A stretch of DNA of 31,180 nt from a virus. The position numbers and the translations under genes were made by a program. The stretch covers positions 1-31,180 of the IMG/VR virus record IMGVR_UViG_3300045971_000277; one strand, 5' to 3'. This document shows, piece after piece, positions 11,943 through 31,180 of the stretch. The notes below the pieces were generated by a model that was given only the letters and a program-made list of their open reading frames with translations, was not told the origin of the DNA and did not search any database. Within the stretch, counting starts at the first letter, position 1; every line of letters begins with the position of its first letter.

Positions 11943-12386
11943 ATGGATACACTAAATAATGCTCACGTCGTGCTAATTCTAGCAGGATACATTGTCACTC
12001 AAGCTTTAACAGCTACTTTAATCTATTGGGCTCTTAGTCGCCAATCGACTGCGCAAATTAAGAGCCTGTTTGAAAGTCGCGGCAAAGAGCATTTTATCGC
12101 GGGGTTCAACGACGAGCTGAGGTCAACCATCACGCGGGCCATCAAGGAAAGTCAGGCCGACGTACTCACATTGGTTTATGACCACGTAAATAAAGAGCTT
12201 GCCGCCACAACCCAAGTCACGCGTGAACTAGTCTCGGAACGCCTACGTGAGATCGATGCCCGTATTATGGACATGCGCGATGCCCTCCGTAAGATTGACA
12301 TGATGCGCGATGAGATGAGCGTGACGAATAAGATTATTGGCGTCATGAGTGAGCGCCTCAATCGGTTCTTTGAAGAGGCAAAATAA
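11943..12386 (+). CDS. single-pass membrane protein with coiled coil
   Basis: N-terminal hydrophobic helix VVLILAGYIVTQALTATLIYWAL, then heptad-rich helices; TAATG coupling to the next gene. Confidence 0.7.
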   Translation: MDTLNNAHVVLILAGYIVTQALTATLIYWALSRQSTAQIKSLFESRGKEHFIAGFNDELRSTITRAIKESQADVLTLVYDHVNKELAATTQVTRELVSERLREIDARIMDMRDALRKIDMMRDEMSVTNKIIGVMSERLNRFFEEAK

Positions 12387-13444
12387 TGCGGCCACGCCAC
12401 ACTAGCCAGAACGGTATCATGCTACACAAGGGCGACCTTGTGGCCGATGCTGCCTACGCTGGTGTCCCGCGTCTGCTTGATGAAGGTGTCGGCCGCATCC
12501 TGTCGATTAATGCTGGATACGCTAAAGTGGCGTGGCGTGATGGGTCCGAGGACACTGTGCGAGCGGCCGACCTGATCCGTGTGGTGGATCGATATGAGCC
12601 GATGATCCACGAGTCGGCCTACGAAATCCCGAAGTATGTGGCAGGCACCCGCGTAATCTTGGGTAATGGTGACCAAGGCCGCGTTATTGAAGAGGTCATG
12701 GGGCCTACTGGGTTCAAGTCATTCAAGATCAAGATTGAAAAGTCGGTAAGCCCGACCGGAGTTGGCCGCATGGTATATGCGACTAATAACGGGATGTCGC
12801 GAATTGCTTCGATTGAGCCTGATACGTGTGCTGCGTTTAGCAAAGAATCGGGCGAGGTCGTGGCGGTCGTCGGCTGCGAGTTAGTCGTTGGCGAAGCCGA
12901 TCAGCAGGTTGGACTGCAAAAGTACAGCAGTCTGCCGCAGGACCATGGCATGCTGTTTCCGTACGACCCGCCGCGTGCCGTCATGTTCCACATGGGCCGC
13001 GTCAGCTTCCCTATCGACGTTATATTCATCGACCAAAATGGCTATGTGGCCGCGATTGAAGAGTCTCGTGAGCCGGGCGTAGAAGAACATTGGGGCCACG
13101 GTCGGGTATCGGCCGTATTGGAAGTCAACGGTGGCTGGTGCAGCCGTAGTGGCGTTATGATTGGCGACCGTGTTAGACTTGGGTCGCGCCATTCGGCACA
13201 GGAAGCATTTGAGCCTCAACACAATCGGACCGACCACGCGGTACGCCCGGTCGACCCCAAGATGGATCCGAATCGGTTCAAGGGGCACGATGTGCCGGGT
13301 GAAGTTTTGAATAGCGGTGACAGTTTTGCCGGTGCCGGTAATGGACCGGGCCGTGATGATTTCGCGCAGCAGGACTCGACCTTCGGTCGTGATCCGACTA
13401 AGTCGATCGATGGACCGGGTAAAGACGTAACGCGACCCTCATAG
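12386..13444 (+). CDS. multidomain protein: two SH3-like barrels plus DUF192 (UPF0127) domain
   Basis: GLQKY..LPQDHGMLF..MFHMGRVSFPIDVIFID..VLEVNGG..GVMIGDRV (~12860-13185) matches the DUF192 pattern. Confidence 0.8.
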   Translation: MRPRHTSQNGIMLHKGDLVADAAYAGVPRLLDEGVGRILSINAGYAKVAWRDGSEDTVRAADLIRVVDRYEPMIHESAYEIPKYVAGTRVILGNGDQGRVIEEVMGPTGFKSFKIKIEKSVSPTGVGRMVYATNNGMSRIASIEPDTCAAFSKESGEVVAVVGCELVVGEADQQVGLQKYSSLPQDHGMLFPYDPPRAVMFHMGRVSFPIDVIFIDQNGYVAAIEESREPGVEEHWGHGRVSAVLEVNGGWCSRSGVMIGDRVRLGSRHSAQEAFEPQHNRTDHAVRPVDPKMDPNRFKGHDVPGEVLNSGDSFAGAGNGPGRDDFAQQDSTFGRDPTKSIDGPGKDVTRPS

Positions 13445-13452
13445 GTGAATAT

Positions 13453-16101
13453 ATGTTCAAACACAATCGTCAGGCACGCAAGGCATTATACGGGTCGCTG
13501 AAGTCGGCGGCCGGTAGCACCCGTACGGCTAAGCTTAGCTGGTACTTACAGCGGCATGAATCGGGCGACAGCGGCAAGACCGTTACGGCGCAGTCGGCAC
13601 CGAATGAGTCGTTGCAGATGGTGCGTGAGTTACTGAGTGCGTATAGCTGGCCGCAACAGCCTAAGCTATTCTACACCGGTATGCGTCACACCGGAGCCCG
13701 CATGGGGGCGACCGAAGTCGGCAGCGCCGTCATCACGGTCACGGGCGAAGTGCGGACTCCCATTGGGGTCCAGTTGGGCTTCGACGTCCCGGTTGAAATC
13801 CGTGACGGCCAGATGCTAGAGCCGAGCGTGATGCTGGTTAACGGCCACGTTGCCGTGATTTCGCAGTCAGCGATTGACAATCTCATCAATAACAACTCGA
13901 CGTTTGCGGACCAGCCGCTTCGTGGCATGTATCAGGCCCCGATGGATGGCGTAGACAATCAGGAATCCCCACGGATCCCGCGCCGCACCCCCGGCATGTT
14001 CCATATGTCGTCGAAGCAGTCTGCGCTACGTGATTTCATCCGGACTCGCGGCCACAAGGGCACGGAGAAGTTAGCCCAGATGGACGCGCCGTCGGGCGTT
14101 AACGTGACGTCCATCGAACGTATGCCAGCTGAGATTGATGAAGAACCCGGCATGCCGACATTTGCCGTCAGTGGATCATTTAATGGTCAGCCATTTGAAG
14201 TAAACTTGTCAATCGAACTTGATGGCCGCGACATGGAGGCACAGCACGTTGCTGGTGTTGACATATTCGGCACTGACGTTGATAGTACGTTTTTTGATGC
14301 ACAGGAGCAGATATTTGTCGCTATTGGCAATAGCCCAGCATATACCGAAGCCATGAAGGAATATGAGGCTAGTTATACTCAACATCAGGCCCAGATGGAG
14401 CCAGCACCAGCTGCCGTGGCACCATGGGAATTAGAGCAGATGCAGGGGCACACAAACCCTGTGACATTAGAGCAGGGCCCAGCATCAACACGTCCAGGCC
14501 TGCAGAAGTGTCCATCATGCGGTGGCCAGCCGCACCCGACGACCGCGCCCTACTGCAGCTCAAAGTGTCTAAAGCTGGACCAGCAGACAACGCACTTTGA
14601 CCAACGTCGGCGTGGCCAGATGCAGCAACCGGCCCCACAGCAGCCAGCTCCACAACAGCCCGCCGCAGCCCCGCAACAGGGTCAGCAACCGGCGAAGCCA
14701 CAGCAGAAGCAGATGTCGCCGCAGGAGGCTATACAGGGCCTGCAGGGTATTGTACAGAATCTGGCGAAGGAGATGCAGCAGCCAGCAGCACCGAAGGCTG
14801 CCCAGATGCAGTCTGAGGATCCGGACGATTTTGACAATGGCCTTGGCCATCAGTCTGATCCAGTAGGGTACACCGATGAGCAACAAGTCATATCAATAGT
14901 AACAGCGATTGTCAACGGAAAAGAAGTTACAGCGATACCAGAGTTTGGCGGTGGCAGCTACCTCTATGTACTAATTGATGGGCGTGTTCCGAGTGCTGCG
15001 CAGCAGCCAATGGCCGATCTGGCTGGCGATTTACTAGCTGACGCCACATACACGCAAGTTGATTTATCTGGTGTTAAGATAGATGCGTATGATGATTTAT
15101 ATAATTTAGTAAAATCTGGCGAGATTGACCAATACGTTGTTGGTCGCCGCGCGCAGATGCAGTCTGAGGACCCTGACGTCCACCTGTATGGTGAGGACGA
15201 GAGAGAAGAAGCTAGCAAGCCCAGCAAGGGGCGCGAGCAGCACAATAATCATCCGACGTCTGAGTTTATGCCTGGAGCTAAGGTTAAGGTGACAAAGAAG
15301 CTATCGGCACCAACCCGGGGCGGGCCACGCGTTGTGATTGAGTCTGGCGCGTCAGGCCATGTCATCCGCGACATGGATGGCCATGGTAATGAGGTCTACG
15401 TCGGCTTTGAAGATGGCCGCAAGTTCGTTATCCCGGCCCGCTATCTTAGCGGCGGCGTAAAGAAGAAGTCGCAGGCCGAGCCAGAATTTACTAATCTTAC
15501 ACATCCTGACCAAGAGCGCGAGGATGACGACGTAGACCCAAGCATGGTCGAAGAGCAGCAGGAACTGCTTGAGCCCGGCATGTCGGTCCGTACCAAGGAA
15601 GAAATGATGGGGTACGAGATTGAGAATATTCGGTTTATCGAAGGCGATTATAATGGGGGCAAGACGCGTTATGAGGTAGAGGTTAAGTACGCGCCCGATG
15701 GAGTGGCTGACGAGTCGGATGGTGAGCTGCACAACGTGACGATCGCGTTTGAAACGGTTCCGGATCTGAGCGGGTACGGCGTTGACATGTTTCCTAAGAT
15801 AGACTATAGCATGTCTTCACAATTGCTTCCTGCCCCAATCCTAGAAGATGTATTAAAGTACGTAGACGAAAATCTAACAGACCACATTGAGTATGCACGG
15901 ACGCTGGGCGAGACTGAACGGCTTGAGGCGGAAGAATACGAGCGGCAGCGCCATGACGATGAAGCTGGTGCGGCCGAAGACCGTGGCGATCTTGAGCGGC
16001 AGAAGAAGAAAGACGAGCATGCATTCAACAATCCCGACATCAATGATATGATTGGCGACGAATACGAATGGGACGAGCACGACCGCCCACGCAAGGTATA
16101 A
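13453..16101 (+). CDS. modular cassette polyprotein (882 aa), putative head cargo
   Basis: RBS AGGTG; modules separated by A|QM motifs; includes a CPSC..YCSSKC Zn ribbon, an SH3-like domain and acidic domains. Confidence 0.75.
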   Translation: MFKHNRQARKALYGSLKSAAGSTRTAKLSWYLQRHESGDSGKTVTAQSAPNESLQMVRELLSAYSWPQQPKLFYTGMRHTGARMGATEVGSAVITVTGEVRTPIGVQLGFDVPVEIRDGQMLEPSVMLVNGHVAVISQSAIDNLINNNSTFADQPLRGMYQAPMDGVDNQESPRIPRRTPGMFHMSSKQSALRDFIRTRGHKGTEKLAQMDAPSGVNVTSIERMPAEIDEEPGMPTFAVSGSFNGQPFEVNLSIELDGRDMEAQHVAGVDIFGTDVDSTFFDAQEQIFVAIGNSPAYTEAMKEYEASYTQHQAQMEPAPAAVAPWELEQMQGHTNPVTLEQGPASTRPGLQKCPSCGGQPHPTTAPYCSSKCLKLDQQTTHFDQRRRGQMQQPAPQQPAPQQPAAAPQQGQQPAKPQQKQMSPQEAIQGLQGIVQNLAKEMQQPAAPKAAQMQSEDPDDFDNGLGHQSDPVGYTDEQQVISIVTAIVNGKEVTAIPEFGGGSYLYVLIDGRVPSAAQQPMADLAGDLLADATYTQVDLSGVKIDAYDDLYNLVKSGEIDQYVVGRRAQMQSEDPDVHLYGEDEREEASKPSKGREQHNNHPTSEFMPGAKVKVTKKLSAPTRGGPRVVIESGASGHVIRDMDGHGNEVYVGFEDGRKFVIPARYLSGGVKKKSQAEPEFTNLTHPDQEREDDDVDPSMVEEQQELLEPGMSVRTKEEMMGYEIENIRFIEGDYNGGKTRYEVEVKYAPDGVADESDGELHNVTIAFETVPDLSGYGVDMFPKIDYSMSSQLLPAPILEDVLKYVDENLTDHIEYARTLGETERLEAEEYERQRHDDEAGAAEDRGDLERQKKKDEHAFNNPDINDMIGDEYEWDEHDRPRKV
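14803..15178 (+). repeat. 25-nt direct repeat pair (QMQSEDPD) flanking an AT-rich in-frame module
   Basis: CAGATGCAGTCTGAGGATCCGGACG at 14803 and CAGATGCAGTCTGAGGACCCTGACG at 15154 (2 mismatches), 351 nt apart. Confidence 0.85.
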
Positions 16102-16701: not shown

Positions 16702-17061
16702 ATGGACGAAGAAATCCTAGAACGTTTGACGATCGTATCCGATGCCAGCTCGCGTCAGCTTATTGGCGAAGTTGACGTGACTGAAGGCAATGAGTATGTA
16801 ACGGTAGTACACCCGCTGATGTTCATGGAGCAGAAGAAAGCGGGCGCGGATGGACTGATAGTAACGCCGATGTTCATGCCGGTTCTGCTGTCGGAATACG
16901 TCGAAGCTATGCTGGTACGGCCTATCAGCATTTATACGGTACCGGCTACGTCAAAGCTCGCGATGCTATATCGGGCTGAATGGGACGCTTACTACAAGGC
17001 TGCGAAGGCATCGGAGGCCGGAATCATTATCACGGACAAGATGCCAGATGGCGGCAAATAA
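16702..17061 (+). CDS. Sm-like fold phage protein (putative)
   Basis: RBS GAGGG; QLIGEV...VTVVHPL...FMP...IYTV...LAMLY...AGIII pattern typical of small phage Sm-like proteins. Confidence 0.55.
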   Translation: MDEEILERLTIVSDASSRQLIGEVDVTEGNEYVTVVHPLMFMEQKKAGADGLIVTPMFMPVLLSEYVEAMLVRPISIYTVPATSKLAMLYRAEWDAYYKAAKASEAGIIITDKMPDGGK

Positions 17062-19111
17062 TCTCAACATAGGTAATTACGAGAATAACGACGAGAGTAT
17101 AGATGACTTCTTACTCAATTTCTCGCTCCGTGTCCAGCAAGCTACCCGTATCGCGCCTGCGCCGGAAGAGAAAGACGAAGACTTAAAGTGGGTACGTGAG
17201 CCAGCGCCGAACGCAATCCAGTGGACCGTAGGCCGCAATTGGCTCAACAACCCATCGACGTATAAGTATCAGCGCCAGTATCAAGTCATCCGCGATTTCT
17301 TCGAACTGTATTGCCCGATCTGCAATCCACTAGACCACGAGTCTCGTGATTGCTGGGGCAAGACGCAGATGTATCTCGAGGATGAGGTACTGCTGGAGTG
17401 GAACCCGGCTGAACGCGACGACGTATGCCCAAAGTGCCGGTCGACTCGTAAAGAGTTCGTCGACGATGGCATGTTCAATAACTACAACCAGTTGCACGGT
17501 GTGGTCGGCATGAGAGGTGGCAAGACTGCCACGACCTCTATCATCGCTACGTATTTCGAACATCGCCTCTATAATATCCACTACGAGACTGAGGGTGGTA
17601 TATCGATTGCGCTCCAGCAGCTGCCGGGCCAGCCGTTCGACGTTACTTTCATCGCCTCGTCTGACATCCAGTCGCAAGATACGATTTGGGCTCACTATAT
17701 AGCGCGTCGCCGCCAATCACCGTGGCTGCAGCGTTATATATCGTGGATTAAGAAAGGTGAAGCAGCTGCGCCTAAACTACCTGGGGTCAAGTCCAATGTA
17801 TATGAAGAGCTAGAAAAGTCGATTACGAACGGCCATTTGAACGTAACGTTCGGGTCAATGAATAGTAACTCGTCCGGTCTAGCTGGGCGTACTCGCCTTG
17901 CTGCATTTATCGACGAATTATCGCGCTTCCAAAATACCGAATCGCGTATGTCAGCCGATGAAGCTTACCGCGTTCTTGAAAACTCGCTCGCTACGGTACG
18001 GACAATGGCGGCCAAGTCTGGCCTGCCGTCCTACCTTGGCCTGATGGGCTCGATTTCATCGCCGATCTCGATCGAAGACAAGGCAATGCGGCTGTGGTTC
18101 CAGTCGCCCGATATTAAGCGCATGTATGCGTTTAAATATCCGACGTGGCTGTTCAATCCATTCATCACCCGAGCCGATCTTGATGACGCGTTTATTAAGG
18201 ACTATGTAGGTGCGAAGCGCGACTTCGGCGCGGATCCGCCGGCCGCCACGTCTCCGCTGATCGAGGATGAAGAGCATTTTAGACGGCAGACGATTGCGCC
18301 AGACTTAAAGCCGACGACGCGAATCGAGTACTACGTCAAGACAGACAAGGTGGGTAACCAGTATAAGGCGGCCCGCGCATTGTCGACCGACTTTGACTCG
18401 CAGGTTGAACGCTTCGTCGTGTTTGACGCTGGCCTGACGTTCGACACGTTCGCTGGCGCCGCTGCCCATGGTGAGTGGGTTGAGACCGAGGAAGGTCCGG
18501 TCTGGATGACGATTTTCGATTGGATTCTACGGGTGCTACCAGAGAAACATCCAGTCCGTATGGATGTGTGGTTTGATTCTGTCCTAGACATCATTAAGAT
18601 ACATAAAGTAAAGCAACGAATCGCACGGGTTGAGTTTGACCGATGGAACTCAGCCCATCTGATCCAAAGCATCCGCGATATGTCAGTACCAGCTGAGCAT
18701 AAGGGTACGGTCGTCACGGACTTCGTTAAGTTCGTGGCCGATGCTAATATGGGTAAGGTGCGCCTACTACCACCGCTCGAGGATGACCATAAGGTCGAGC
18801 CACACCTGATGAGTCCAGCCGGTACCGTGTTCTATGAAATGGCCCGGATGGAGCGGTCGCCGGACTTGCGTAAAATCTTTAACCCGAAGAAGGGTGAGCG
18901 GATCGGCTGGAACTCAGACGACGTCGCACAGTGCGTCGTCCATGCCCACCGTATGGTGCAGGAGGTTATTGCTGTGGACCAGCACGGTGCCCATAATTCT
19001 CCAGAGATGCGCCTGCGTAACGAAACCGTGGGTGGGGCATCGTGGGCACGTGGCAGGGGTGGTGGCCGGGTCTTTGTACCTAAACAGAATATAGGAACGC
19101 GAGGTTGGTGA
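17048..19111 (+). CDS. terL: terminase large subunit
   Basis: Walker A GMRGGKT, Walker B AAFIDE, coupling motif ISS, RNase H-like nuclease acids FDAG, FDRWNS and SDDVA; N-terminal CPIC/CPKC Zn insertion. Confidence 0.93.
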   Translation: MAANNLNIGNYENNDESIDDFLLNFSLRVQQATRIAPAPEEKDEDLKWVREPAPNAIQWTVGRNWLNNPSTYKYQRQYQVIRDFFELYCPICNPLDHESRDCWGKTQMYLEDEVLLEWNPAERDDVCPKCRSTRKEFVDDGMFNNYNQLHGVVGMRGGKTATTSIIATYFEHRLYNIHYETEGGISIALQQLPGQPFDVTFIASSDIQSQDTIWAHYIARRRQSPWLQRYISWIKKGEAAAPKLPGVKSNVYEELEKSITNGHLNVTFGSMNSNSSGLAGRTRLAAFIDELSRFQNTESRMSADEAYRVLENSLATVRTMAAKSGLPSYLGLMGSISSPISIEDKAMRLWFQSPDIKRMYAFKYPTWLFNPFITRADLDDAFIKDYVGAKRDFGADPPAATSPLIEDEEHFRRQTIAPDLKPTTRIEYYVKTDKVGNQYKAARALSTDFDSQVERFVVFDAGLTFDTFAGAAAHGEWVETEEGPVWMTIFDWILRVLPEKHPVRMDVWFDSVLDIIKIHKVKQRIARVEFDRWNSAHLIQSIRDMSVPAEHKGTVVTDFVKFVADANMGKVRLLPPLEDDHKVEPHLMSPAGTVFYEMARMERSPDLRKIFNPKKGERIGWNSDDVAQCVVHAHRMVQEVIAVDQHGAHNSPEMRLRNETVGGASWARGRGGGRVFVPKQNIGTRGW

Positions 19112-21207
19112 TGCGGCCGTACTACATTAGGCGTGCTGCCGTTGACATCGTCACGGAGCCAGAAGCAAAATCGACGCAGCCGTCGGGTAAGCTATCGCCC
19201 GAGACAGAGTATCCAGCGGGTGAGCAGTCGTCGTCGCAGTCCGGCGCCCCGTCTACAATGAAGGGCCTGCCACTGGTCGCGGAGTCTGACACGATAACAT
19301 TAGCCGATGTGGTGCGGATGGCCGAGATTGGTCAGGACTTAGATGACCTGACGACATCGCCGCCACCGCAGGGCGATTCCAAGATGACGTCAGTCCACAA
19401 TCAGGGTGATTCATATACGAATGACAACACGGGCGAAGGCACGATCCACATGGGCGCGATCGGGTCGAAGCCGTCGACGTATCCACCGCATTCGTCCGGC
19501 GACGGTCCGCTAGGTGAGCGGTTCGACGACACCGACGACATTATCGTGCACGCCACGGTCGGCACTGGTCGGGATCCGTATCGGGTTGGGTCGCTGTATT
19601 CATATAACGAACTGATACCGCAGCACCAGCATGAAGTTGATATTAACTGGAAGCGCCGCCGTGGCCGCCACTTCATGTGGTTACGTACATCGATGCGCCT
19701 GCCGGAGTTGCTATCAGAGTCACGTGAATGGTACGACAAGAACCGCGATAGCAAGTGGAAGATTGCGGATCGCGAGCGTGTCGTTGATCTAGCCGAAGTC
19801 TTCATGAAAGGTGCGACCGTCACACCGCTGTTGGTGTCACCCGTAGGTGAGGTCAACGGTGGGCTATGGGAAGGCTACCACAGGCTGAACGCACTTGATA
19901 TATTGGCGGCCCAGTCTGTACCGGTGCTGATGAAGGTTGACCTGCGTGACACCGACTGGAAGATCAAGCTAGCCGATGAGCAGCGTGAGCCGTGGGTCGC
20001 GGTTGACCTTGACGGCACCATATTGAACGAGGGGCCACACGAGGGCGACGGACGGCCTCCGCTGGGTGAGCCGTTCCCGGGTGCCAAGGAAGTCCTACAG
20101 AGCTTCATGGATCAAGGTTACCGCGTATCGATCTGGACTGCACGTCAGTATTTCGAAGACGACGACAGCGAAGGCGCTGAATGGCAGGCCGAGATTGATA
20201 AGCACCTCAAGTATCACCAAATCCCGTATAGTGACATCTACGTCGGCAAGAAGCCACCTGCGGACGCCTTTATTGACAACAAGGCTATACATTTCGATGG
20301 TAGTTGGCCCGATATGGCCAAGCAGACCGAGATGATGCTGCGCCAGGGTCACATCCGGATGATGGCGAAGAAGCACACTGGATGTTTCATTGGTCTGACG
20401 GTACCGGCGAAGGCCGCGAGTGCTCTGGCGGTCGAAGGCGGCGAGTCCGCTGATAGTATGCACGTCACGATGTTTTATCAGAAGGGCGTGACGGACGAAG
20501 AGGCGGCCAAGATAGAAGAAATTTGGACTGAACTATGGGATCAGTATCGGCCGCTACGGATCAAGCTAAGCAAGACTGATGTATTTGATGCGAGTGAGCA
20601 TTCGGACAATAAGGAAGTCTTAATCTGCCCGATTGACAGCGATGATATTCAAGAGCTGCACTCAACGCTGTTGGAGCGTATCGAGTCGGCCGGAATCGAG
20701 CTGCGACAGAGCTTCCCCGACTATAAGCCGCATGTGACGCTAAAGTATTTAGATGATGGTGAAGAGTATCCGGATCACATTGATCATGTTAGCTTTGAAA
20801 TCGATCAATATGAGTTTGATCCAGGTAGTGGTGTCGAGAAGGAAGCCCATGACGGCACCTTCTCGATATCGGACGACGCGGCAGATTCGTATACCGATGT
20901 TGACGGTTCCCGTGGCGACCTGTCGGTTGATCGGGCTCCGTCGACCGAACATCTGAAGCGTGGGGCGGTGGAGTTTAAGTGGCTGAAGACCGAGGGAATA
21001 AACAAATCATACATCTGCATGGTAGGTGATGAAAGGGTTGGATACGCTACCGGAGCAAGGCTGTTAGGCCAGATGGAAAATAAGCCGTGGGCTGCATATA
21101 AGATAGTAAAGGGATGCGAGATATTTATTGGTCACTACGCTACGGTATTCAAGGGTGGCGACCGTGGTGCCGCGCATGCAATTGAGGCGACATACACGAA
21201 GCGCTAG
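19111..21207 (+). CDS. multi-enzyme protein: ParB/Srx-like + HAD phosphatase + 2H phosphoesterase (Acb1/LigT-like) + small C-terminal domain
   Basis: TGATG overlap with terL and GAGG RBS; LWEGYHRL (ParB-like); VAVDLDGT, WTAR, KPPADAFID (HAD); MHVTMFY and YKPHVTLKY (two HxT motifs). Confidence 0.85.
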   Translation: MRPYYIRRAAVDIVTEPEAKSTQPSGKLSPETEYPAGEQSSSQSGAPSTMKGLPLVAESDTITLADVVRMAEIGQDLDDLTTSPPPQGDSKMTSVHNQGDSYTNDNTGEGTIHMGAIGSKPSTYPPHSSGDGPLGERFDDTDDIIVHATVGTGRDPYRVGSLYSYNELIPQHQHEVDINWKRRRGRHFMWLRTSMRLPELLSESREWYDKNRDSKWKIADRERVVDLAEVFMKGATVTPLLVSPVGEVNGGLWEGYHRLNALDILAAQSVPVLMKVDLRDTDWKIKLADEQREPWVAVDLDGTILNEGPHEGDGRPPLGEPFPGAKEVLQSFMDQGYRVSIWTARQYFEDDDSEGAEWQAEIDKHLKYHQIPYSDIYVGKKPPADAFIDNKAIHFDGSWPDMAKQTEMMLRQGHIRMMAKKHTGCFIGLTVPAKAASALAVEGGESADSMHVTMFYQKGVTDEEAAKIEEIWTELWDQYRPLRIKLSKTDVFDASEHSDNKEVLICPIDSDDIQELHSTLLERIESAGIELRQSFPDYKPHVTLKYLDDGEEYPDHIDHVSFEIDQYEFDPGSGVEKEAHDGTFSISDDAADSYTDVDGSRGDLSVDRAPSTEHLKRGAVEFKWLKTEGINKSYICMVGDERVGYATGARLLGQMENKPWAAYKIVKGCEIFIGHYATVFKGGDRGAAHAIEATYTKR

Positions 21208-21255: not shown

Positions 21256-24200
21256 ATGAGCATCGAGATTTTTGGATCGTATGGCAACCCGCGCCAGCAG
21301 GCAGCGAAGCCCAGCAATATGCCGGGTGGTCTAACGGCGACGCAGACGGAGCAATTGGCATCGCGTTTTGAAACAATGATGCCAAGCATCACGTCTGGTG
21401 CGGCCGATCCTAGCCGGATTCAGAAGCTATTCACCGACACCCTACCGAAGGGTGCCAATTGGGATCCGCGTACGTCCAAGACTGCCCAGATGGGATCTAA
21501 CATCTCTGGTATGGGTGGCAGTAGCGGCGGCAAGACAATGATGACGAACCAACGGCCTTACCAGCCTGAGTTCGAATGTTACCTACATGGGACTACATTG
21601 TCGTACATGGACGGCACTACAGTCGAAATCCAAAATGCTAAAGTAGGCGATAAAGTTTTGGATAAGCTTGGACATATCCAAACCGTTGAACGCTGGTGGT
21701 GTAGTGGTAATCCAGAAGAATTAATGGAAATTATGTTGTGGGGTGGAGTGAAGTTATACTCTACTACCAACCATAATCACCATGTATTTAAGATGCCGCG
21801 TGAATGTCCGACGGGCTGCGGACTACAGCACTTCCACAATAAACGATACGGGGCGCAGCATTTTGGTGGCGTCGGCACGAATCAAGTGACGATGCCGAAG
21901 CAGTATTTCAAGATTGAAAAGCTACCGGCTGGCGAGATAGTGCAGGGTGATTATCTCATGATGCCGCGTAAGTTTGACGAAATCGAGACGGATGTAACGC
22001 CAGATCGAGCCCGTCTTCTTGGCTATTATATAGCAGAAGGTGATGCGGCAGGCGGCAATGGCATTCAATTTACCTTTGGTTCGCATGAATTAGATACACT
22101 AGTAAAAGATACCGTAGCGATTCTAAGCTCTGAGTTTAATGTGGCTGCGGGGATGTCTGATCGTCGGACGCACGCGAGGCCAGCAAACGCCATAACGATT
22201 AGAAGCTCTACTACCAGCGCACGAGCTGCTGCGGAATGGTTTATACGACACGGTGGCCAATATTGTTATACGAAGCGGCTGTCGGCTGATGTGATGCGAT
22301 GGCCGCTTGTCTTGAAGGAAGAGTTAGTGCGTGGCATGTATCGTGGCGATGGCAGCCAGTTCTATGTCAAAACCGAGAAGGATGGCTACGTCAGCTACAG
22401 ATTCGATTGTACTTATACGACGACGTCAAAGCAACTTGCGTCACAGCTACAGTTAGTACTGGCCCAGCTTGGCATTTTTGCTAAGATTAAACATAAGAAG
22501 GCTAAAAAGCGTGAGACTGGCATCAATGAATCAGATTGTTATGTTCTTATATCGCGCGCCGATCATGGTGGCAGGCTTGCCGACTTAGTATGGGGCGAGG
22601 ATTCGCTATTTAAGTCGGACTCGTCTGCGCCGACTGAATCACACTACTTAGTTGATGCCGATTACATTTACATAGAAGTAAAGTCGGCTAAGGTCGTTCA
22701 GAATGATCAACCCGTATATAACTTAACGGTATCGGGCGATCACTCATATCTTGTCTACAATGTAGGCACATATAACTCGCCCGACCGCCAACAGTATCCG
22801 GTCCACCGCATCCTAGCCAATCGATACTGGCGCCTGTTCTATAAGATGGACCCGGTCATCGGCAACTGCATCGACATGTACGGCGACATGCCGTGGTCGC
22901 CGTTTAAGCTGACCGGTCCAGGCGTCGAGGGCTCCATCCTAAATACGATGGAGGCTACGGCCCAAGAGTCAGGGCTGATGCACACGCTACCGGCGATGAC
23001 GAAGGAATTCTTCATCACGGGCGAGGCAATTCCCCACCACTTCTTTGACGACGCCAAGGGGTATTGGACCTATATAGCCCTACACAATCCAGACCAGCTG
23101 GAAGTGATCGACGCGCCATTTATCAAGATGGACCCCATCATGGAGTTCGTGCCGGATGACCGGCTTCGGTCCATTATGGGCTCCAATCATCCAGCGCTGC
23201 GTAAGGTGCGAGATCAGATGCCGCCGCAGCTGCAGTCGCTGCTGCAGGCTCGTCAAAATATACCGCTATCCAACATCAACGCGACCTTTATCCCGCGTAA
23301 GCTACATCCGTACGATACGCGTGGTACATCAATCTTCTCCCGCCTCTGGCGTATCTTCATGTATGAGGACGCCATATTTAATGCGAGTATCCAGACGGCC
23401 CGTCGCCACGCTGGCCCGCTTAAGGTCGCCAAGTTAGGTAATGCACAGACCGGTTGGATCCCGGGCCCAGAGCACGAGGCAAAGCTCTTGCAGCTTCTGG
23501 CCCAGGCCGAGCTTGACCCGCATGCATGGCTCGTCTACCACTATGGTATCGCGTTCGAAACGGTCGGCACAACCGACCGTATGATGACGATTAACCGTGA
23601 ATGGGAAATCATCGAGCGTATCAAGTTGGTCGCGCTTGGCATCTCTAAGAGCTTCCTCACGGGCGAGGTAACATATGCATCAGCCGCTACCGGCTTGCAG
23701 GTCTTCTTGCAGCGTCTCAAAGCACTGCGCAATTTCTTTGAACAAAAGTACATTATCCCGAAGTTTTTCCTACCGCTTGCTGAAATTAATGGCTGGATTC
23801 GTCGATCGCCTGCTGAAATCCAACATCAGTTCCGCATTAAGCGAAGCCATCAAGAACTCCTAAATGAGCAGCGCTACATCGTACCCAAGATTGTGTGGGA
23901 GAAGTCGCTAGACCCAGCGATCGATCAGGCACTTGTGACCGCTATGCAGGCGCTCGAGAACATGGGAGTCAAGTTTAGCAAGACGACCAAGATGGCGACG
24001 GTCGGAATCGCGTTCGAAGAGGAAGCTCGCAAGATCGCTCAGGAAGAGCAATTTGAGCGCCAGTTCCTGCCGAAGCTCCCGTCACAGCAGCCGCCCGAAG
24101 GTGGCGGTGGAGGCGGGGGTGGCGTCGGTGGCATGTCGGGCGGTCCAGAGCCGATGCCCGCGCCGGGTAATGAGGGCGATACGTCGGGCGCGGAGCAGGC

Positions 24201-24801
24201 CGGTGGCGGCACAGCTGGCCCGCCCGGTCCAACGCCGGAACCGGCTGCACTCAAGACGCAGGCGGGCGAAGGCAAGAAGACTGATGAGGTTCAGTCGATC
24301 GAATCGCACGAGCCCGGGTACGCGGAGAACACTAAGCTACTTCGGTCTAAGATTTGGCGTGACAATCGCTACGGCAATTGGGACGCGGAAGAGGCCGAAG
24401 ATATTATTGAACTTCTACATACGGCCACCACTGATTCTCCGTTCTGGACTAAGCTGAGCAAGGATCCAGAGTTCATGGCGGCGCTCAAGTCGGAAGAGCC
24501 CGGCGCGGTGTGGCACGAGATGGAGAAGTATCTGACGAAGTGTGGCTATCCAGACCAAGATCAGGATGAGCTATACGATATCTTGGTGGCCGAGAATGTG
24601 ATGCCGAAGCGTGACCTAGAACATCTGCAGGAGATCGAAAAGCAGATGGAGGCTGAATTTGTCGGTAGCGATCCAAACCTGCTGGTCGGCGCGTCGACAG
24701 CAGCTACCGGCAATCTCAGTGGTGACATTACTGAACGCCTCATGAAGGCCCGCAAGGCCAATGCGAAGGCGACGAAGCCTAAGTCGAAGAAGAGGAAATA
24801 G
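21256..24801 (+). CDS. portal protein (intein-containing; ~781 aa after splicing)
   Basis: Lies between terL and the protease; RLFYKMDPVIGNCIDMY and RGTSIFSR..RRHAGPLKVAKLG segments resemble portals of large myoviruses; Gly/Pro-rich C-terminal extension. Confidence 0.85.
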   Translation: MSIEIFGSYGNPRQQAAKPSNMPGGLTATQTEQLASRFETMMPSITSGAADPSRIQKLFTDTLPKGANWDPRTSKTAQMGSNISGMGGSSGGKTMMTNQRPYQPEFECYLHGTTLSYMDGTTVEIQNAKVGDKVLDKLGHIQTVERWWCSGNPEELMEIMLWGGVKLYSTTNHNHHVFKMPRECPTGCGLQHFHNKRYGAQHFGGVGTNQVTMPKQYFKIEKLPAGEIVQGDYLMMPRKFDEIETDVTPDRARLLGYYIAEGDAAGGNGIQFTFGSHELDTLVKDTVAILSSEFNVAAGMSDRRTHARPANAITIRSSTTSARAAAEWFIRHGGQYCYTKRLSADVMRWPLVLKEELVRGMYRGDGSQFYVKTEKDGYVSYRFDCTYTTTSKQLASQLQLVLAQLGIFAKIKHKKAKKRETGINESDCYVLISRADHGGRLADLVWGEDSLFKSDSSAPTESHYLVDADYIYIEVKSAKVVQNDQPVYNLTVSGDHSYLVYNVGTYNSPDRQQYPVHRILANRYWRLFYKMDPVIGNCIDMYGDMPWSPFKLTGPGVEGSILNTMEATAQESGLMHTLPAMTKEFFITGEAIPHHFFDDAKGYWTYIALHNPDQLEVIDAPFIKMDPIMEFVPDDRLRSIMGSNHPALRKVRDQMPPQLQSLLQARQNIPLSNINATFIPRKLHPYDTRGTSIFSRLWRIFMYEDAIFNASIQTARRHAGPLKVAKLGNAQTGWIPGPEHEAKLLQLLAQAELDPHAWLVYHYGIAFETVGTTDRMMTINREWEIIERIKLVALGISKSFLTGEVTYASAATGLQVFLQRLKALRNFFEQKYIIPKFFLPLAEINGWIRRSPAEIQHQFRIKRSHQELLNEQRYIVPKIVWEKSLDPAIDQALVTAMQALENMGVKFSKTTKMATVGIAFEEEARKIAQEEQFERQFLPKLPSQQPPEGGGGGGGGVGGMSGGPEPMPAPGNEGDTSGAEQAGGGTAGPPGPTPEPAALKTQAGEGKKTDEVQSIESHEPGYAENTKLLRSKIWRDNRYGNWDAEEAEDIIELLHTATTDSPFWTKLSKDPEFMAALKSEEPGAVWHEMEKYLTKCGYPDQDQDELYDILVAENVMPKRDLEHLQEIEKQMEAEFVGSDPNLLVGASTAATGNLSGDITERLMKARKANAKATKPKSKKRK
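21577..22776 (+). mobile_element. intein with LAGLIDADG homing endonuclease (400 aa) in portal
   Basis: EFE|CYLHGT block A, TTNH block B, LLGYYIAEG and VRGMYRGDG LAGLIDADG helices, VYNLTV..HSY block F, TYN|S end; lower GC than the exteins. Confidence 0.93.
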
Positions 24802-24887: not shown

Positions 24888-25010
24888 ATGGGTTTTCATA
24901 AAACTGGACTTGCCACATCGTTAGGTATCGTAGAGCAGCCTAAGCAGGCTGAGAAGCCACCGGAGTCAGTTGAAAAGCCCCAACCGAAGCAAGCACAGCC
25001 GGTTAAATAA
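24888..25010 (+). CDS. 40-aa peptide coupled to the protease gene (not in ORF track)
   Basis: GAGG RBS; MGFHKTGLATSLGIVEQPKQAEKPPESVEKPQPKQAQPVK; TAATG overlap with the protease start. Confidence 0.7.
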   Translation: MGFHKTGLATSLGIVEQPKQAEKPPESVEKPQPKQAQPVK

Positions 25011-28000
25011 TGAGTTTCGTCAGGTACGCTAAGATACAAGTACTAGCCTCATGGGAAGTCGATCAAGACGGCCATAGCAGAATCGCGCACGCGAATGTAA
25101 CGGCAGCGGAAGCCCCGCTGCCGTCGTTCTATGCGAATCCTGGCAACCCCGGTACGTTGGATGTCAAAGAAGCCCTAGCGAAGGTTTCGAAGCAATATGA
25201 TATCAGTGCTGACCCGCGTGAATACATTTTTGAAGCGGTACGAGCCGTCACCGCAGGCGTATCTAATGAGAATGGCGACGCTTTTCATCGTGACGAACTT
25301 CTTCGTTTCGATCATCGCCTTGGCTGCGCAGTTTATCAGACTTTTATCCTAAAGCCACACCACGTTAATCACCGCGCCGAGAATCCTAAGACGGCCCGTG
25401 GCGTTATCCTAGATTCACACTACAACGACACCGCGCCTGCCTTAGAGATGTGCCCAAAGGAAGGTTGCGGCAATCGTACAGCAGAGCGTGAAGGCCGTGA
25501 CCGTACCGGCATCTACTGTAAGGCTTGCGGCACCACGGTCAAGGATGAATTCGTTGAGGTCCTGTTGGCCGTCAATGCATCGAAGGACCCGTCGTTTGCC
25601 GAAGGCGTGCGGACCGGCGTACTGAATGCGACCTCGATGGGCTGCTTTGTCCCAGGCACTCTTGTTACGATGGCAGATGGCAGCCGTAAGGCCATTGAGG
25701 CTGTTGTGCCGGGCGATTTTGTTATCACCCACACTGGCGCGGTGGCTGAGGTAGATGAAACCTCCGAACACGCTTGTGATGACGACATTGTTAGTATTTC
25801 TGTTGCGGGTGTGCAGGCCGACATCGTAGCCACTAATGACCATCCATTCTGGGTTGTAGATCGCGACACCAACTCTGGCAAGTGGGTGCACGCGTGTGAA
25901 GTTAAGCAGGGTGACTACTTACTTAGCCCGAAGCGCGACACTAAGCCAGTTGAAATAGACATTAAGTTAGCACGCCTAGCAGGGTATTTTGCTGCAGAAG
26001 GTAACTTTATTAGAGCTTACGATGGTCCGCTATCTGGCGAGCGAGTTGGGGTTGAGTTCTCTCTGAATGCGACAGAAACATGCTATTTAGATGAGATCCA
26101 AAAACTATTGATAGATCTTGGCGCCGATCCAAAGCGCTACGTGCGGGCTGACCGTAACATTGGCGTTGTTAAGGCGTATCGTTGCAAGGAGTTAGCTGAT
26201 AAGTTATTGCAACTAGTCGGCGAGCATGCACACAATAAGCATCTGTCCGATGAGATTTACGGTTGGCCTCGCGAAGCCCAGTTAGCATTTGTTGGCGCCA
26301 TCATTAATGGCGATGGTTTTGGCATTCACGAATACGGACATTCATGGACCCAGTTCACGTCTGTGAGCCAAGACCTTTGTGATCAAGTATCTCAGTTATT
26401 GGTTAACCTTAATATCCCACATCGCACTTCTGTTACAGCTAAGCGTTCCGGGTTTGGTTCTGAACGTCCCGTTTATGACCTGCATATAACAGGCGACTAT
26501 CAATTGGAGTTGGCTACTTCTACCGACAAGGTTAAGAAGACCTCTGCCACTGGTAATAAGATGGTTGCCAGTGTTCCATCTGATGCTGGCATTCTTCGTA
26601 AGGTGCGTAAGGTTGAACCAATCCAGTATACCGGAAACGTATATAATTTCGGCGTAAAACACGACGATCACTCTTACGTAGCGGGTGGCATTGCGGTTCA
26701 CAATTGCGTGTGCGACTCCACCACATGCAACGTGTGCGACCACGTCGCCTATAACAAGAGCGAGTTCTGCACTCACATCCGTGCAGGCAACAAGAAGAAG
26801 ACATTCAAGACGGCGGCAGGCGAGCGTGTCGCGTTTGAGTGGTGCAATAACGTCGTGTTTACCGAGCTAAGCCGGGTTGACCAGCCAGCTGACCCGACCG
26901 CACTACAGCAGGAGATTCTCGAGTTCACGGCGAAGATTGAACAAGAATCGACGAAGCCAGAAGCGCTCCGGAATGAGACTGAGCTACTCATCCTGTCGAA
27001 ACGCCTAGCCGACCTCAACGTTAGGGTGGCACAGATGCAGAAAGTGCCTGCCCCGCAACAGACCGACGCTCCCGCGCCGGGTCCAAAAGAGAACGCAGAG
27101 CTACCACAAGATAAACCGGACCAGTCAGCTAAGGTGCCGATACAGGAATTTGCTGACGGTAAAGAAGAGAAAGAGAAGAACGAAGAGGCACCCAGCCTTG
27201 CCGCAGTTGGCATCGATCCGGAGTCGATCGGTGCAGGTCACATCGCCGGACTTTCGGATCAATATTTAGCAGAACTAGACGCAGCAGCCAATCACGTGGC
27301 AACCAAGCCCGAGGGAGTTATAATGTCACAGTTTAAGTTCAAGACAGCATATAAGGATATGCGCCTGCAGGTAACTAAGCAGGGTAACTATCGGGTCTTT
27401 AACGATGCCGGTACCGTTTTCGTCGTCCGTCCGGAGCCGAAGGTGGCGGTGGCGGATCGCAAGGAGTTCGGCATCGGCATCATGCGTGACATTGCTGATA
27501 CCGGCATCGTCGCGACTGCCAAGAAGTACAGCGTGGCCTTCGGCCCGCGTACTGCTAGCGTCCTAGAGCATCACCTCGAGGATTTCGAGAAGGGCCGCGA
27601 CGAGGGCGACACCAAGCCTGCTACGGCTGACGGCATGCGTGATCACGCCGACAGCGAGCACGGCACGCCTAAGAAGAAGATGACGGAAGGCGTTGAGCGC
27701 GACCACGCTGAAAGCGAGCACGGCAAGCCGAAGCAGACCGTGACGGAAGACCACGTTGAGGATATCGAGGATGGCCGCAAAGAGGCCCCGGATACCGCCG
27801 TGGGTGAAGAGAACACGGTCAACAAGGACAAGCACCCGAAGAAGACAGTCAAGGACAACGTGCTGGACGACGCTGTCGTGGACCATGCTGAGGGCAAGAA
27901 CAAGAAGAAGGCTCAGGCGGATGAGAAGTCCAAGCCGTCCAAGTCTACGTCCAAGCCGTCTACGTCCAAGCCGTCTACGTCCAAGCCGTCGAAGAAGGAT

Positions 28001-29374
28001 GAGGCATCTAAGCCAGCCAGCAAGGGTGCGGCTCCCAAGGAGTCTGCCCCGCCTGCGGCCAATGAGCCGTTCGGCGGCGCGACTGACATCAGCGACGACG
28101 AGCTTGACTCGGCCTTCGACTCGGCCACCACGTCGCCGGGCGAGCAGGAAGGCACTGCGACCGCAATCCGCCTCTGGACCGCTAACAAGACCGTCATTGC
28201 CGACCTTGGCAAGCAGATCGAGTCGCTCAAGGCTGTCAACACTGGTCTGATGGTAGACCAGATTGCACCAGTTCTACGTGATATCGCGTCTAAGTCGATG
28301 GAAGTTGATGGCGTCGTGCACAAGCTGTCTGAGTGGACTCAGGGCTCGACTTCGTACGGCAAGGTGTTTGAGCAGCTAAACGCCCAGCTGTCCACCGAGC
28401 TACAGGCCGTTGCGGCTGCGCTGAAGGAGCAGAACACCACGCAGGTAGTCCGCCAGGAACTGAAGCCGGGTAAGCTGGCACAGCTTGAGGGTCGTAAGCT
28501 TGAGGTGGCTCTCGCGGCTGTCTCGGCTACCCTCGATAAGATGCTACAGATGGGCCAGGGCCAGGGTGACGTTGGTATGCCGCTGGCGGCCAAGAAGGAT
28601 GGCAAGCCGTGGTACGAGAAGTTCAACAAGAATGAATCTGGCAGCAAGTCGGCTAGCAAGTCCAAGTCCGCTAGCAAGGGGGCCTCAGTGGAAAAGACCG
28701 CGATGGATAAGGAATGCAGCCGTCACGGTAAGGCTTGCTCGTCTAAGGGTGCGAAGACCGCCGGGATGGAAGTCACGGCGGCCAGCAAGAAGTACGAGTC
28801 CCGTCTAGACCGCGTCTACAAGCGTCGGTTTGCGCAGCTTGAGTCGGAGAAGAACAAGAAGGTGGCGGAGGTTGAGGTTGATGTGGCTGGCAAGTTTAAG
28901 CGTGCGCTTAAGCTGGTCGCGTCCCGTCAGCGTCTAAATCTCGAGACCTCACCGATCAAGGCGGCGTTCGCTGACACCCTACTGACTCCAATGGACTTGG
29001 GCGGTGACGATTACTACCCCGGCATGGACGAGCAGCTTGCAGTGTCGCTGATCGAGCGCGCAGCAGCTGAGGGTCTCGAAGAGTTCGTCGAGAAGACCAT
29101 CGAGCGTGCTGCCGAAGTCATGAAGCTGTCCGAGGACGCGTTCAACGCACTGGAGGCCGATATCAAGAATCTACAGACGATGGCTCCTCCGGTGTCGCGT
29201 AAGGCTGCAACTGGCCACGATGGCAGCAACGTGCGTCGTGCCGCTGCTCAGGGTAATCTTCAGATTGCACCGTCATCCGTAGAAACCGCACCGACCGCTG
29301 ATGGTCGGCACAATCGCACAGAGCTTCGTACCGCATTAAATAACACCAAGATCAACCGCCAACGGGGTATATAG
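25010..29374 (+). CDS. prohead maturation protease fused to a long scaffold-like region (intein-containing; ~1100 aa after splicing)
   Basis: NENGDAF, HVNH..ARGVILDS, TSMG|C putative catalytic Ser, CNVC..FCTH and FTELSRV..PADPTA motifs; coiled-coil C-terminus; lies between portal and capsid genes. Confidence 0.88.
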   Translation: MSFVRYAKIQVLASWEVDQDGHSRIAHANVTAAEAPLPSFYANPGNPGTLDVKEALAKVSKQYDISADPREYIFEAVRAVTAGVSNENGDAFHRDELLRFDHRLGCAVYQTFILKPHHVNHRAENPKTARGVILDSHYNDTAPALEMCPKEGCGNRTAEREGRDRTGIYCKACGTTVKDEFVEVLLAVNASKDPSFAEGVRTGVLNATSMGCFVPGTLVTMADGSRKAIEAVVPGDFVITHTGAVAEVDETSEHACDDDIVSISVAGVQADIVATNDHPFWVVDRDTNSGKWVHACEVKQGDYLLSPKRDTKPVEIDIKLARLAGYFAAEGNFIRAYDGPLSGERVGVEFSLNATETCYLDEIQKLLIDLGADPKRYVRADRNIGVVKAYRCKELADKLLQLVGEHAHNKHLSDEIYGWPREAQLAFVGAIINGDGFGIHEYGHSWTQFTSVSQDLCDQVSQLLVNLNIPHRTSVTAKRSGFGSERPVYDLHITGDYQLELATSTDKVKKTSATGNKMVASVPSDAGILRKVRKVEPIQYTGNVYNFGVKHDDHSYVAGGIAVHNCVCDSTTCNVCDHVAYNKSEFCTHIRAGNKKKTFKTAAGERVAFEWCNNVVFTELSRVDQPADPTALQQEILEFTAKIEQESTKPEALRNETELLILSKRLADLNVRVAQMQKVPAPQQTDAPAPGPKENAELPQDKPDQSAKVPIQEFADGKEEKEKNEEAPSLAAVGIDPESIGAGHIAGLSDQYLAELDAAANHVATKPEGVIMSQFKFKTAYKDMRLQVTKQGNYRVFNDAGTVFVVRPEPKVAVADRKEFGIGIMRDIADTGIVATAKKYSVAFGPRTASVLEHHLEDFEKGRDEGDTKPATADGMRDHADSEHGTPKKKMTEGVERDHAESEHGKPKQTVTEDHVEDIEDGRKEAPDTAVGEENTVNKDKHPKKTVKDNVLDDAVVDHAEGKNKKKAQADEKSKPSKSTSKPSTSKPSTSKPSKKDEASKPASKGAAPKESAPPAANEPFGGATDISDDELDSAFDSATTSPGEQEGTATAIRLWTANKTVIADLGKQIESLKAVNTGLMVDQIAPVLRDIASKSMEVDGVVHKLSEWTQGSTSYGKVFEQLNAQLSTELQAVAAALKEQNTTQVVRQELKPGKLAQLEGRKLEVALAAVSATLDKMLQMGQGQGDVGMPLAAKKDGKPWYEKFNKNESGSKSASKSKSASKGASVEKTAMDKECSRHGKACSSKGAKTAGMEVTAASKKYESRLDRVYKRRFAQLESEKNKKVAEVEVDVAGKFKRALKLVASRQRLNLETSPIKAAFADTLLTPMDLGGDDYYPGMDEQLAVSLIERAAAEGLEEFVEKTIERAAEVMKLSEDAFNALEADIKNLQTMAPPVSRKAATGHDGSNVRRAAAQGNLQIAPSSVETAPTADGRHNRTELRTALNNTKINRQRGI
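25643..26704 (+). mobile_element. intein with LAGLIDADG homing endonuclease (354 aa) in prohead protease
   Basis: SMG|CFVPGT, TNDHPF block B, LAGYFAAEG and VGAIINGDG, VYNFGV..HSY, VHN|C canonical end. Confidence 0.95.
27557..27900 (+). repeat. degenerate ~60-nt (20-aa) His/Asp-rich tandem repeats
   Basis: RDHADSEHGTPK and RDHAESEHGKPK exactly 60 nt apart (27641, 27701), with more divergent units on both sides. Confidence 0.7.
27944..27988 (+). repeat. 15-nt tandem repeat x3 (STSKP)
   Basis: Three perfect copies of TCTACGTCCAAGCCG. Confidence 0.9.
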
Positions 29375-30224: not shown

Positions 30225-31180
30225 ATGGCACAGGTACATAACCCATACCGTCAGATCAAGCGCACAGCGTCAGCTGCCGCTCCTGCGGTTGCGCCCGTAA
30301 AGGCGCCAGTCAAGACCCGTTTAGCCAGCAAGGCCGATGAAAGCAATTTCGACGCCACTGGCACTTTCAACCCGCAGGCTTACGGCGGGTTCCGCGAGGA
30401 CATTCAGAGCGCAATTGGCAACAAGCGCGCTAAGATGTTCGATGGCAGCGGCGAACTGAACGCGTACGATAATAAGGACGCGCTGCAACAGATCGCTTAC
30501 CTGCTTAACAACGTCACCAAGAAGGCCTCCCCCGGTACGTTCTACCGTGAGGCTTCCAACATGAAGTCGGATGACCGCCGCAAGGTTCTAGCGGCTGCTC
30601 TAGCTGATCCGACCGGTGAAGGCTTTGCTATCGTTGGCCAGGAGCTTCTGCTCCCGATCAAGGATATCATCGACTACGAGGGCTGGGCACGCAAGATCTT
30701 CCGCGTCCGTCCGCTCGCGCAGGGTGAGTTGTTCCGCATCGCCAAGGACGTTCGTGCGACTGCCTGGACCGTTGGTCAGGATGGTCAATCGATCGAGTCC
30801 CGCGTGTACGGTAAGTACATCACCCCGTCTGAGTTCAAGGTTACCTCGTTCCCCACCGTTGACATCGAAGACATCTATCAGATGAACTTCGACGTCCTCG
30901 ATCGCGCTCAGGACACTGCGCGTCAGGAGATCGAGCTTGAAGAGGATAAGCGCGCTCTTGCCATCATCGACCGCGCCAGCGTCACCGTCAACAGCCCCAC
31001 CATCTTCTCGACTCTCGGCGTGGCTGCTTTCGAAGACATCCGCTATCAGGTTGAGCGCCACCGTCTCGTGGTTGCCAAGTTCCTCATCAACCGTCGCGAG
31101 CTTTCCGACCTCATCAAGACCGCCATCGGTCAGGGTGCAGGTGGGCAGCACGTTGACCCGGTGACCGAGCGCGAGCTAAT
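30225..31180 (+). CDS. major capsid protein (HK97 fold), 3'-truncated by the window
   Basis: RBS AAGGAG; open to the window end: MAQVHNPYRQIKRTAS...PIKDIIDYEGWARKIF...EFKVTSFPTVDIEDI...DVLDRAQDTARQEIELEEDKR; strong codon bias; position after the decoration gene. Confidence 0.9.
   Translation, partial: MAQVHNPYRQIKRTASAAAPAVAPVKAPVKTRLASKADESNFDATGTFNPQAYGGFREDIQSAIGNKRAKMFDGSGELNAYDNKDALQQIAYLLNNVTKKASPGTFYREASNMKSDDRRKVLAAALADPTGEGFAIVGQELLLPIKDIIDYEGWARKIFRVRPLAQGELFRIAKDVRATAWTVGQDGQSIESRVYGKYITPSEFKVTSFPTVDIEDIYQMNFDVLDRAQDTARQEIELEEDKRALAIIDRASVTVNSPTIFSTLGVAAFEDIRYQVERHRLVVAKFLINRRELSDLIKTAIGQGAGGQHVDPVTEREL

Follow-up and report, generated by a model that had tools for sequence, protein, structure and literature searches.

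The window examined here covers the opening 31 kb of a 101.9-kb viral record (IMG/VR IMGVR_UViG_3300045971_000277), whose CheckV completeness of 48% points to a complete phage genome of roughly 200 kb. Within it lies the gene of P0001, a modular protein that a first-pass annotation of the DNA had read as an in-frame array of cassettes, with foreign domains inserted at a putative cleavage-site sequence; the repeats, coordinates and GC counts given there were all correct on recheck. The gene stands in a block that runs, in order, through a 328-amino-acid (aa) protein, a 147-aa protein, a DUF192 protein, P0001 itself, a ~200-aa protein, a 119-aa protein and the large terminase, and this synteny is kept in L002, L003-L006 and L020. 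Further head genes follow downstream; among them is that of the capsid protein, which shares 70% identity with its counterpart in the uncultured Virus Rctr197k and has distant relatives in phage G, PaBG and Lu11.

P0001 belongs to an undescribed family whose fixed backbone consists of a cystatin/NTF2-like N-terminal domain (the N-core), a linker that often carries a zinc ribbon, and an SH3-like domain. Three further segments, M1, M3 and M5, stand beside this backbone in the window protein. In a model of the whole chain, the N-core, M1, the zinc ribbon, one helix, the SH3 domain and M5 are folded, and all AQM and KKKSQ sites of the protein lie between folded domains, in linkers with a predicted local distance difference test (pLDDT) score below 60.

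Window-specific modules of P0001 and their boundaries

An exhaustive, profile-free homologue search returned as nearest ortholog P0002, a protein of 479 aa that is 76% identical to P0001 and is encoded on a 7.5-kb contig (L002) with the same gene order. The DNA alignment of the two genes covers the N-core, the zinc-ribbon/linker part and the SH3 part, and leaves 14085-14380, about 14769-15150 and 15474-16101 as DNA found in the window gene only. P0002 lacks the 315-nt M1 and the 351-nt M3, and in three-way junction alignments the breakpoints fall inside the GCCCAGATGGA repeat and the 28-nt AQM-coding repeat, respectively; it also lacks the C-terminal 206 residues (M5), in place of which it has a 9-residue tail, and homology to the window picks up again right after the stop codon. 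The presence and absence of modules at AQM repeats, which the first-pass annotation had proposed looking for among orthologs, is thus what this pair displays. The more distant relatives P0004, P0005, P0006 and P0007 are also without M1 and M3, and in P0003 the pre-SH3 site holds two extra modules of a different kind, each flanked by [AS]QM. After the SH3 domain, a KKK/KS-[AS]-Q sequence is common to P0001, P0002, P0003 and P0005 (P0007 reads KKKAE), and the tails behind it, 9 to 206 residues long, are unrelated. The three window-specific modules are thus each located at a conserved site (A, B and C in Table 1), and the comparison supports the conclusion that P0001 acquired these extra modules precisely at short linker motifs of the form Lys/Arg/His-x-Ala-Gln(-Met). 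As the outgroups lack M1 and M3 and both modules have a low GC content at third codon positions (GC3), gain in the lineage of the window is the simplest history, which favours reading M1 and M3 as insertions. What is new here is a close ortholog pair that captures module gain at motif sites and so gives direct comparative evidence of it.

One further boundary had been placed at 14614, where GGCCAGATGCAG encodes a GQM site. P0002 reads GQA at this point and shares both flanks, which belong to the Gln/Pro-rich linker, so this GQM is not a module or indel boundary and no module starts there. In P0009, an 80-residue N-terminal extension is joined to the start of the N-core via K-G-Q-M-N-M-F (residues 70-85); the extension represents a further module joined at QM, or else the start was called wrongly.

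Base composition changes sharply along the gene, as had been noticed from raw counts (17/60 GC at 15061-15120, 42/60 at 13681-13740). The GC3 profile bears this out, with 0.73 in the N-core, 0.47 in M1, 0.60 in the zinc segment, 0.66 in the Gln/Pro linker, 0.40 in M3, 0.65 in the SH3 part and 0.57 in M5. M1 and M3 thus have the lowest GC3 in the gene, and M3 lies at the 3.7th percentile of the coding windows of the genome.

The motif-coding repeats are concentrated in P0001. The pattern GCSCAGATGSA occurs four times in the window, every time in frame in the P0001 gene and on its strand, with 0.15 expected; the protein has four AQM against 0.2 expected (0/400 shuffles) and holds 9 of the 31 Gln-Met dipeptides of the whole genome. 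The two copies at site B are spaced 351 nt apart and differ at two positions in a 25-nt form (14803 and 15154) and at three in the 28-nt form (14800-14827 and 15151-15178). All three mismatches of this 9-codon repeat are synonymous third positions, and given the shared peptide and the codon usage of the genome, the probability of at least six of nine codons being identical is 0.21. For the A-Q codons of junction 1, the observed DNA identity has P = 0.15 under independent codon choice. As the DNA identity of the repeat pairs is what peptide and codon usage lead one to expect, they represent a repeated peptide motif and not a young DNA duplication. The proposal that foreign domains were inserted at the site with duplication of the site is therefore retained in part: ortholog and GC3 evidence speaks for insertion at the motif, and a recent target-site duplication is not supported, the repeats being no more alike than the peptide requires. 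The duplication of AQMQSEDPD at M3 could be an old target duplication, or M3 could have come in from another polyprotein with the same SH3-module leader.

Searching the modules separately for stand-alone homologues, as the first-pass annotation had suggested, was productive for M1, which is a complete small domain with free-standing homologues of 91-94 aa (P0125, P0136 and P0145) among small open reading frames (ORFs) in other phage contigs. Its closest relative, 57% identical, is found in P0028 (L012 8001-8891), a protein of 296 aa that is likewise encoded among small ORFs, has no N-core and consists of three parts split by KVGQ-I, KTAQ-V and TLAQ-V, the middle one being the M1 relative. The M1 relatives known so far belong to phages of higher GC content and are ruled out as donors. 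A word-indexed search detected no homologue of M3 or M5, none was found in the genome of the phage itself or in the loci retrieved, and neither matches a Pfam family; across Pfam, PHROG and NCBIfam, no match over threshold was obtained for any P0001 module.

The backbone domains are recognisable at the level of fold. The AlphaFold2 model of the N-core has a pLDDT of 82, and its best VIA match, with Z 7.8, is to cystatin/NTF2-type folds in general. Foldseek searches of the PDB, BFVD searches and VIA-wide searches for a specific relative gave generic cystatin/NTF2 matches only; a BFVD match to phage G gp7 had no sequence support, and an ESM Atlas search with the N-core gave nothing usable. The N-core was also considered as a protease and rejected, its alignment having no conserved His/Ser pair and the protease being encoded elsewhere. 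Foldseek assigns the second family-wide domain to the SH3 fold, with TM-scores of 0.70-0.77 and a root-mean-square deviation of 2.5-3.1 Å over ~61 residues. The zinc ribbon, CPxC...P[YF]CSxKC (14485-14580, residues 345-376), weakly matches YacG, a DNA gyrase inhibitor, and MYND, far under the curated cut-offs. For YacG, the scores are 17 bits against a cut-off of 79 in NCBIfam (E 0.003) and 13 bits against 25.5 in Pfam (E 0.07), and the resemblance is confined to the CxxC...CSxxC core.

Table 1. Features of the P0001 gene and of the downstream head genes, in window coordinates
Feature	Position	Strand	Remarks
P0001, putative polyprotein ORF, 882 aa	13453..16101	+	Modular; within conserved gene block
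N-core, residues 1-208	13453..14076	+	Family-defining; ends K-L-A; helix on curved antiparallel sheet, cystatin/NTF2-like
Site A, left copy	14074..14084	+	GCCCAGATGGA, A-Q-M-D; K-L before
M1, residues 209-313, 315 nt	14077..14391	+	Ends H-Q-A; absent from P0002; small alpha+beta domain
Site A, right copy	14389..14399	+	GCCCAGATGGA, A-Q-M-E; 315 nt from left copy
Zinc ribbon CxxC...CxxxC (C353, C356, C368, C372)	14509..14569	+	Backbone; conserved in P0002-P0005, P0008, P0009; pLDDT 86-91
Gln/Pro-rich linker and one helix, residues 389-450	14617..14802	+	Shared with P0002
Site B, left copy, 28 nt	14800..14827	+	A-Q-M-Q-S-E-D-P-D; K-A before
M3, residues 451-567, 351 nt	14803..15153	+	Ends R-R-A; absent from P0002; low-confidence model
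Site B, right copy, 28 nt	15151..15178	+	3 synonymous differences; native SH3-module start QMQSEDPDVHLY, conserved in P0002, P0003, P0005
SH3-like beta-barrel, residues ~600-670	15250..15462	+	Second family-wide conserved domain; pLDDT 83-97
Site C, K-K-K-S-Q after SH3	15460..15474	+	KKK-A-Q in P0002, P0005; KS-A-Q in P0003
M5, residues ~675-882	15475..16098	+	Window-specific; beta domain and long charged helix
Large terminase	17048-19111		
2H-phosphoesterase fusion	19105-21207		Between terminase and portal
Portal	21256-24801		Intein-interrupted
K-T-A-Q-M	21478..21492	+	N-terminal region of portal
Prohead protease-scaffold protein, 1454 aa	25010-29374		N-terminus matches PHROG head maturation proteases; intein; long scaffold-like C-part
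R-V-A-Q-M	27023..27037	+	Junction of protease domain and scaffold-like part in gene 25010-29374; protease domain ends, Pro-rich linker begins
Ig-like protein			Between protease-scaffold gene and major capsid protein
Major capsid protein	starts 30225		
K-R-A-K-M	30423..30437	+	Major capsid protein, 2-6 residues before PHROG homology; candidate propeptide cut

The linker motif in the family and in other head proteins

The P0001 family comprises at least 320 homologue clusters, nearly all of which match residues 1-210 only. An SH3 domain is present in 125 of 150 family representatives, and 115 of the 150 have the N-core followed by SH3. In these 115 members, the distance from N-core to SH3 ranges from 17 to 840 aa and the post-SH3 tails from 3 to 767 residues, and [KRH]-x-A-Q is found 91 times between the two domains, against 17.6 expected. 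The number of sites rises with the length of this stretch (r = 0.75), and A-Q-[MLVI] occurs after the N-core in 22% of members, compared with 2% of control windows. In minimal members a single site is all that separates the N-core from the SH3 module; in longer members the SH3 module lies further downstream and is again preceded by a site of this kind. The family is thus widespread and uncharacterised, with a hypervariable middle in which anti-defence or host-takeover functions would be expected.

Within the genome, enrichment of [KRH]-x-A-Q is restricted to the head-gene block, which has 24 occurrences against 6.1 expected (0/300 shuffles), while the rest of the genome has 8 against 7.2. Protein by protein, the motif is enriched only in P0001, in the protease-scaffold protein and in a 986-aa protein. 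The last of these (1535-4495), which has no family match, carries seven K-x-A-Q against 0.8 expected, and it is a candidate for a second motif-punctuated polyprotein.

The sites in the head proteins recur in relatives that are 30-70% identical, in the form of related motifs at the protease/scaffold junction and at the portal N-terminus. RVAQM of the protease-scaffold protein is aligned with R-A-A-Q-R in Rctr197k, and L020, a 188-kb contig, has E-A-Q-M at this junction, matched by position and not by alignment. The portal KTAQM has as its equivalents KTGQA in L004, KTAQS in L020 and KHAAM in Rctr197k, and the equivalent of the capsid KRAKM in L020 is R-S-A-N-R-M. P0054, the L020 member of the P0001 family, contains four sites where 0.5 would be expected. 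The head block is likewise enriched in basic-x-Ala with Ser or Lys as the next residue, which is consistent with cleavage behind Ala and a relaxed requirement at the position that follows. Taken together, motif statistics, position and conservation make it plausible that the motif is a prohead-protease cleavage site, at which the modules would be released.

Readings of the motif and of the modules

Overall, we think it somewhat more likely than not that P0001 is a late-operon protein with a fixed backbone that has gained modules at motif linkers, that the motif is a prohead-protease site, and that ordinary recombination and selection account for the rest. The backbone domains are separated and followed by short disordered linkers with [Lys/Arg/His]-x-Ala-Gln-(Met or other hydrophobic), and M1, M3 and M5 have each been added exactly at one such linker, so that each added module has a complete motif at both ends. 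The motif may be recognised by the prohead protease of the phage, the cut probably falling after Ala, and the P0001 chain would enter the capsid whole and be split there into its individual domains. Modules could be gained, lost and swapped via ordinary recombination, illegitimate or microhomology-based, in the motif-coding DNA or next to it. The 9-11 nt of homology that the motif supplies may assist, and selection would retain only in-frame events with whole domains and intact sites, which would make a dedicated recombination system unnecessary.

Several observations weigh against this account. A-Q after the N-core is found in only about a third of the family, and the candidate capsid site, KRA|KM, has no Gln and is not conserved in Rctr197k. 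The identity of the protease, and with it a place in the T4 gp21 / assemblin-like family, depends on a sole match, to PHROG 18299 ("head maturation protease"), with no sequence relative found in Pfam, NCBIfam or the PDB. The module comparison itself involves one close ortholog; a search for further close orthologs in viral and metagenome contigs found distant ones only, and tblastn of P0001 against the phage collection returned Rctr197k alone, which is uncultured. Finally, the linkers are the sole insertion-tolerant places of the protein, so breakpoints in linkers would be expected whatever the role of the motif.

This last point leads to an alternative in which the motif is not cut and is a linker element with a structural or binding role, for instance a hinge or a peptide to which the scaffold or some other partner docks; P0001 would then act as an intact "polyvalent" protein, with modules located where linkers tolerate insertion. 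The setting of the motif sites in disordered linkers, the many family members without the motif and the poor conservation of the capsid-protein site are what such a reading would predict. However, a passive linker does not explain why basic-x-Ala-Gln is enriched in head-block proteins only, why the motif marks the end of the protease domain and occurs in the portal N-terminus, with related motifs there in distant relatives, or why the inserted modules have a full motif at both ends. We consider this reading possible, if unlikely.

Prohead-protease processing, if accepted, could also be taken a step further. The protease-site linkers might serve as exchange points at which units of the form "Gln-hydrophobic ... 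domain ... basic-x-Ala" pass between the head polyproteins of different phages. We offer this as a tentative and rather doubtful extension; a test for cassette exchange, in which module identity should exceed N-core identity, mostly recovered the well-conserved SH3 module. Were it true, any protein placed between two sites would be packaged, released and injected, giving a protein-level gene-cassette array without a recombinase, and the pool of mobile small phage proteins would include separate early genes elsewhere.

The polarity of the events could be reversed, with an ancestor that had M1 and M3 and relatives that deleted them between direct repeats, for which the flanking repeats of 11 and 28 nt could have served. 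This would require several independent losses, as P0002, P0004, P0005, P0006 and P0007 all lack both modules; moreover, the GC3 of M1 and M3 is distinctly under that of the backbone, and the relatives of M1 are free-standing genes elsewhere. We regard this history as improbable.

A still weaker case can be made for the ATG of the motif as an internal start codon, the modules then being nested translation products that need no cutting. Shine-Dalgarno-like GGAG/AAGG sequences do lie 8-10 nt 5' of the ATGs that open M1 (14080) and M3 (14806), within 14060-14082 and 14790-14808, and such a motif precedes only 6 of 31 internal ATGs; the AQM Met also stands a few residues upstream of the starts of stand-alone homologues. 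The right-hand copies, however, have no such motif, P0002 has no GGAG, and relatives frequently have Leu, Val, Ser or Ala behind A-Q, which leaves this explanation very improbable. We give equally little credence to a dedicated cassette-insertion system, integron-like or of the endonuclease-homing kind, targeting CAGATG sites, for which the abundance of HNH endonucleases and inteins in the genome and the precise breakpoints might be cited, since the junctions show no inverted repeats or hairpins in 13950-15600, family scans find no recombinase or nuclease adjoining the gene, Hint and endonuclease features are missing from the modules, and the identity of the repeats does not exceed what the peptide demands. 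As a mechanism, the integron analogy of the first-pass annotation does not hold.

Comparison with known systems, and neighbouring genes

The T4 head protease recognises the motif L/I-x-E, and its substrates IPI-III and Alt share one short motif. The corresponding motif of SPN3US is A-x-E (PMC5694885), and SPN3US gp53 has several motif copies, at least three of which are cut (PMC10052503). As in the substrate sets of T4, phiKZ and SPN3US, one short motif marks many head proteins here, since it is found also in the protease/scaffold protein (RVAQM), the portal (KTAQM) and, in the form KRA|KM, the major capsid protein. The T4, phiKZ and SPN3US motifs end in Glu, whereas the one described here consists of basic-x-Ala and then Gln.

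For polyvalent proteins, packing in the head and joint delivery with the DNA have been predicted, preceded in some cases by proteolysis (Iyer et al. 2017, PMC5512222). Like P0001, they are large, multi-domain phage proteins, mosaic in build and with rapidly shuffled domains; P0001 has six segments, at least four of them folded, and architectures vary across 115 relatives. None of the polyvalent signature domains (MPTase, SNF2-methylase, ART, PBECR, DarA-N and others) was detected in P0001 with Pfam, PHROG or NCBIfam. P0001 also differs from polyvalent proteins in that its domains are split by one recurring short motif, which it shares with the portal and the protease, and in that module gain is documented there. 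The Dar proteins of phage P1 (DarA, DdrB) are accessory head proteins that are proteolysed before or during packaging (PMC5512222). P0001 has no sequence relation to them, and the fold match of its N-core to a P1 head chain is weak, with Z 6.5 in the noise range of the tool. MuF and SPP1 gp7 head proteins, whose C-terminal effectors vary, have an N-terminal Phage_Mu_F domain, whereas residues 1-208 of P0001 have no Pfam or PHROG match and a cystatin/NTF2-like fold. An integron-type system would have a recombinase beside the array and structured cassette sites, neither of which was found here.

In the polyproteins of RNA viruses, a foreign domain placed between two viral protease sites is released without disturbing its neighbours. 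The logic would be the same here, with differences in realm, genome type and protease, the candidate substrate being a virion protein of a DNA phage. If the motif is truly cut, the capsid-delivered proteins of a large and almost unstudied phage group would become readable from sequence, and P0001 would show the stepwise addition of injected proteins, each module arriving between two copies of the site and leaving its neighbours undisturbed. If it is not cut, P0001 would still illustrate clearly how, in nature, domains accrete in frame at linkers.

Several observations concern the genes around P0001. The gene of the DUF192-domain protein (12386-13444) immediately precedes that of the family member in all relatives inspected (L002, L003-L006, L020 and the P0022 contig); after the DUF192 domain, the window protein has RHSAQ, a basic-x-A-Q sequence, and its L020 counterpart has KSAQM. 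In phage G, gp27 as annotated is 282 aa only. Intein matches (LAGLIDADG/Hint) occur in both the portal gene and the prohead-protease gene, the intein of the protease standing directly after a Ser-Met-Gly-Cys motif, and the L004 and L020 orthologs of portal and protease are without both inteins. Genes for HNH or homing-type endonucleases are scattered through the structural region, at 81-668 in the window and at 31544-33244 and 34263-35147 in G000. The 700-aa fusion protein encoded between terminase and portal has ParB-like, HAD/phosphoheptose-isomerase-like and 2H-phosphoesterase (Acb1/LigT-like) matches.

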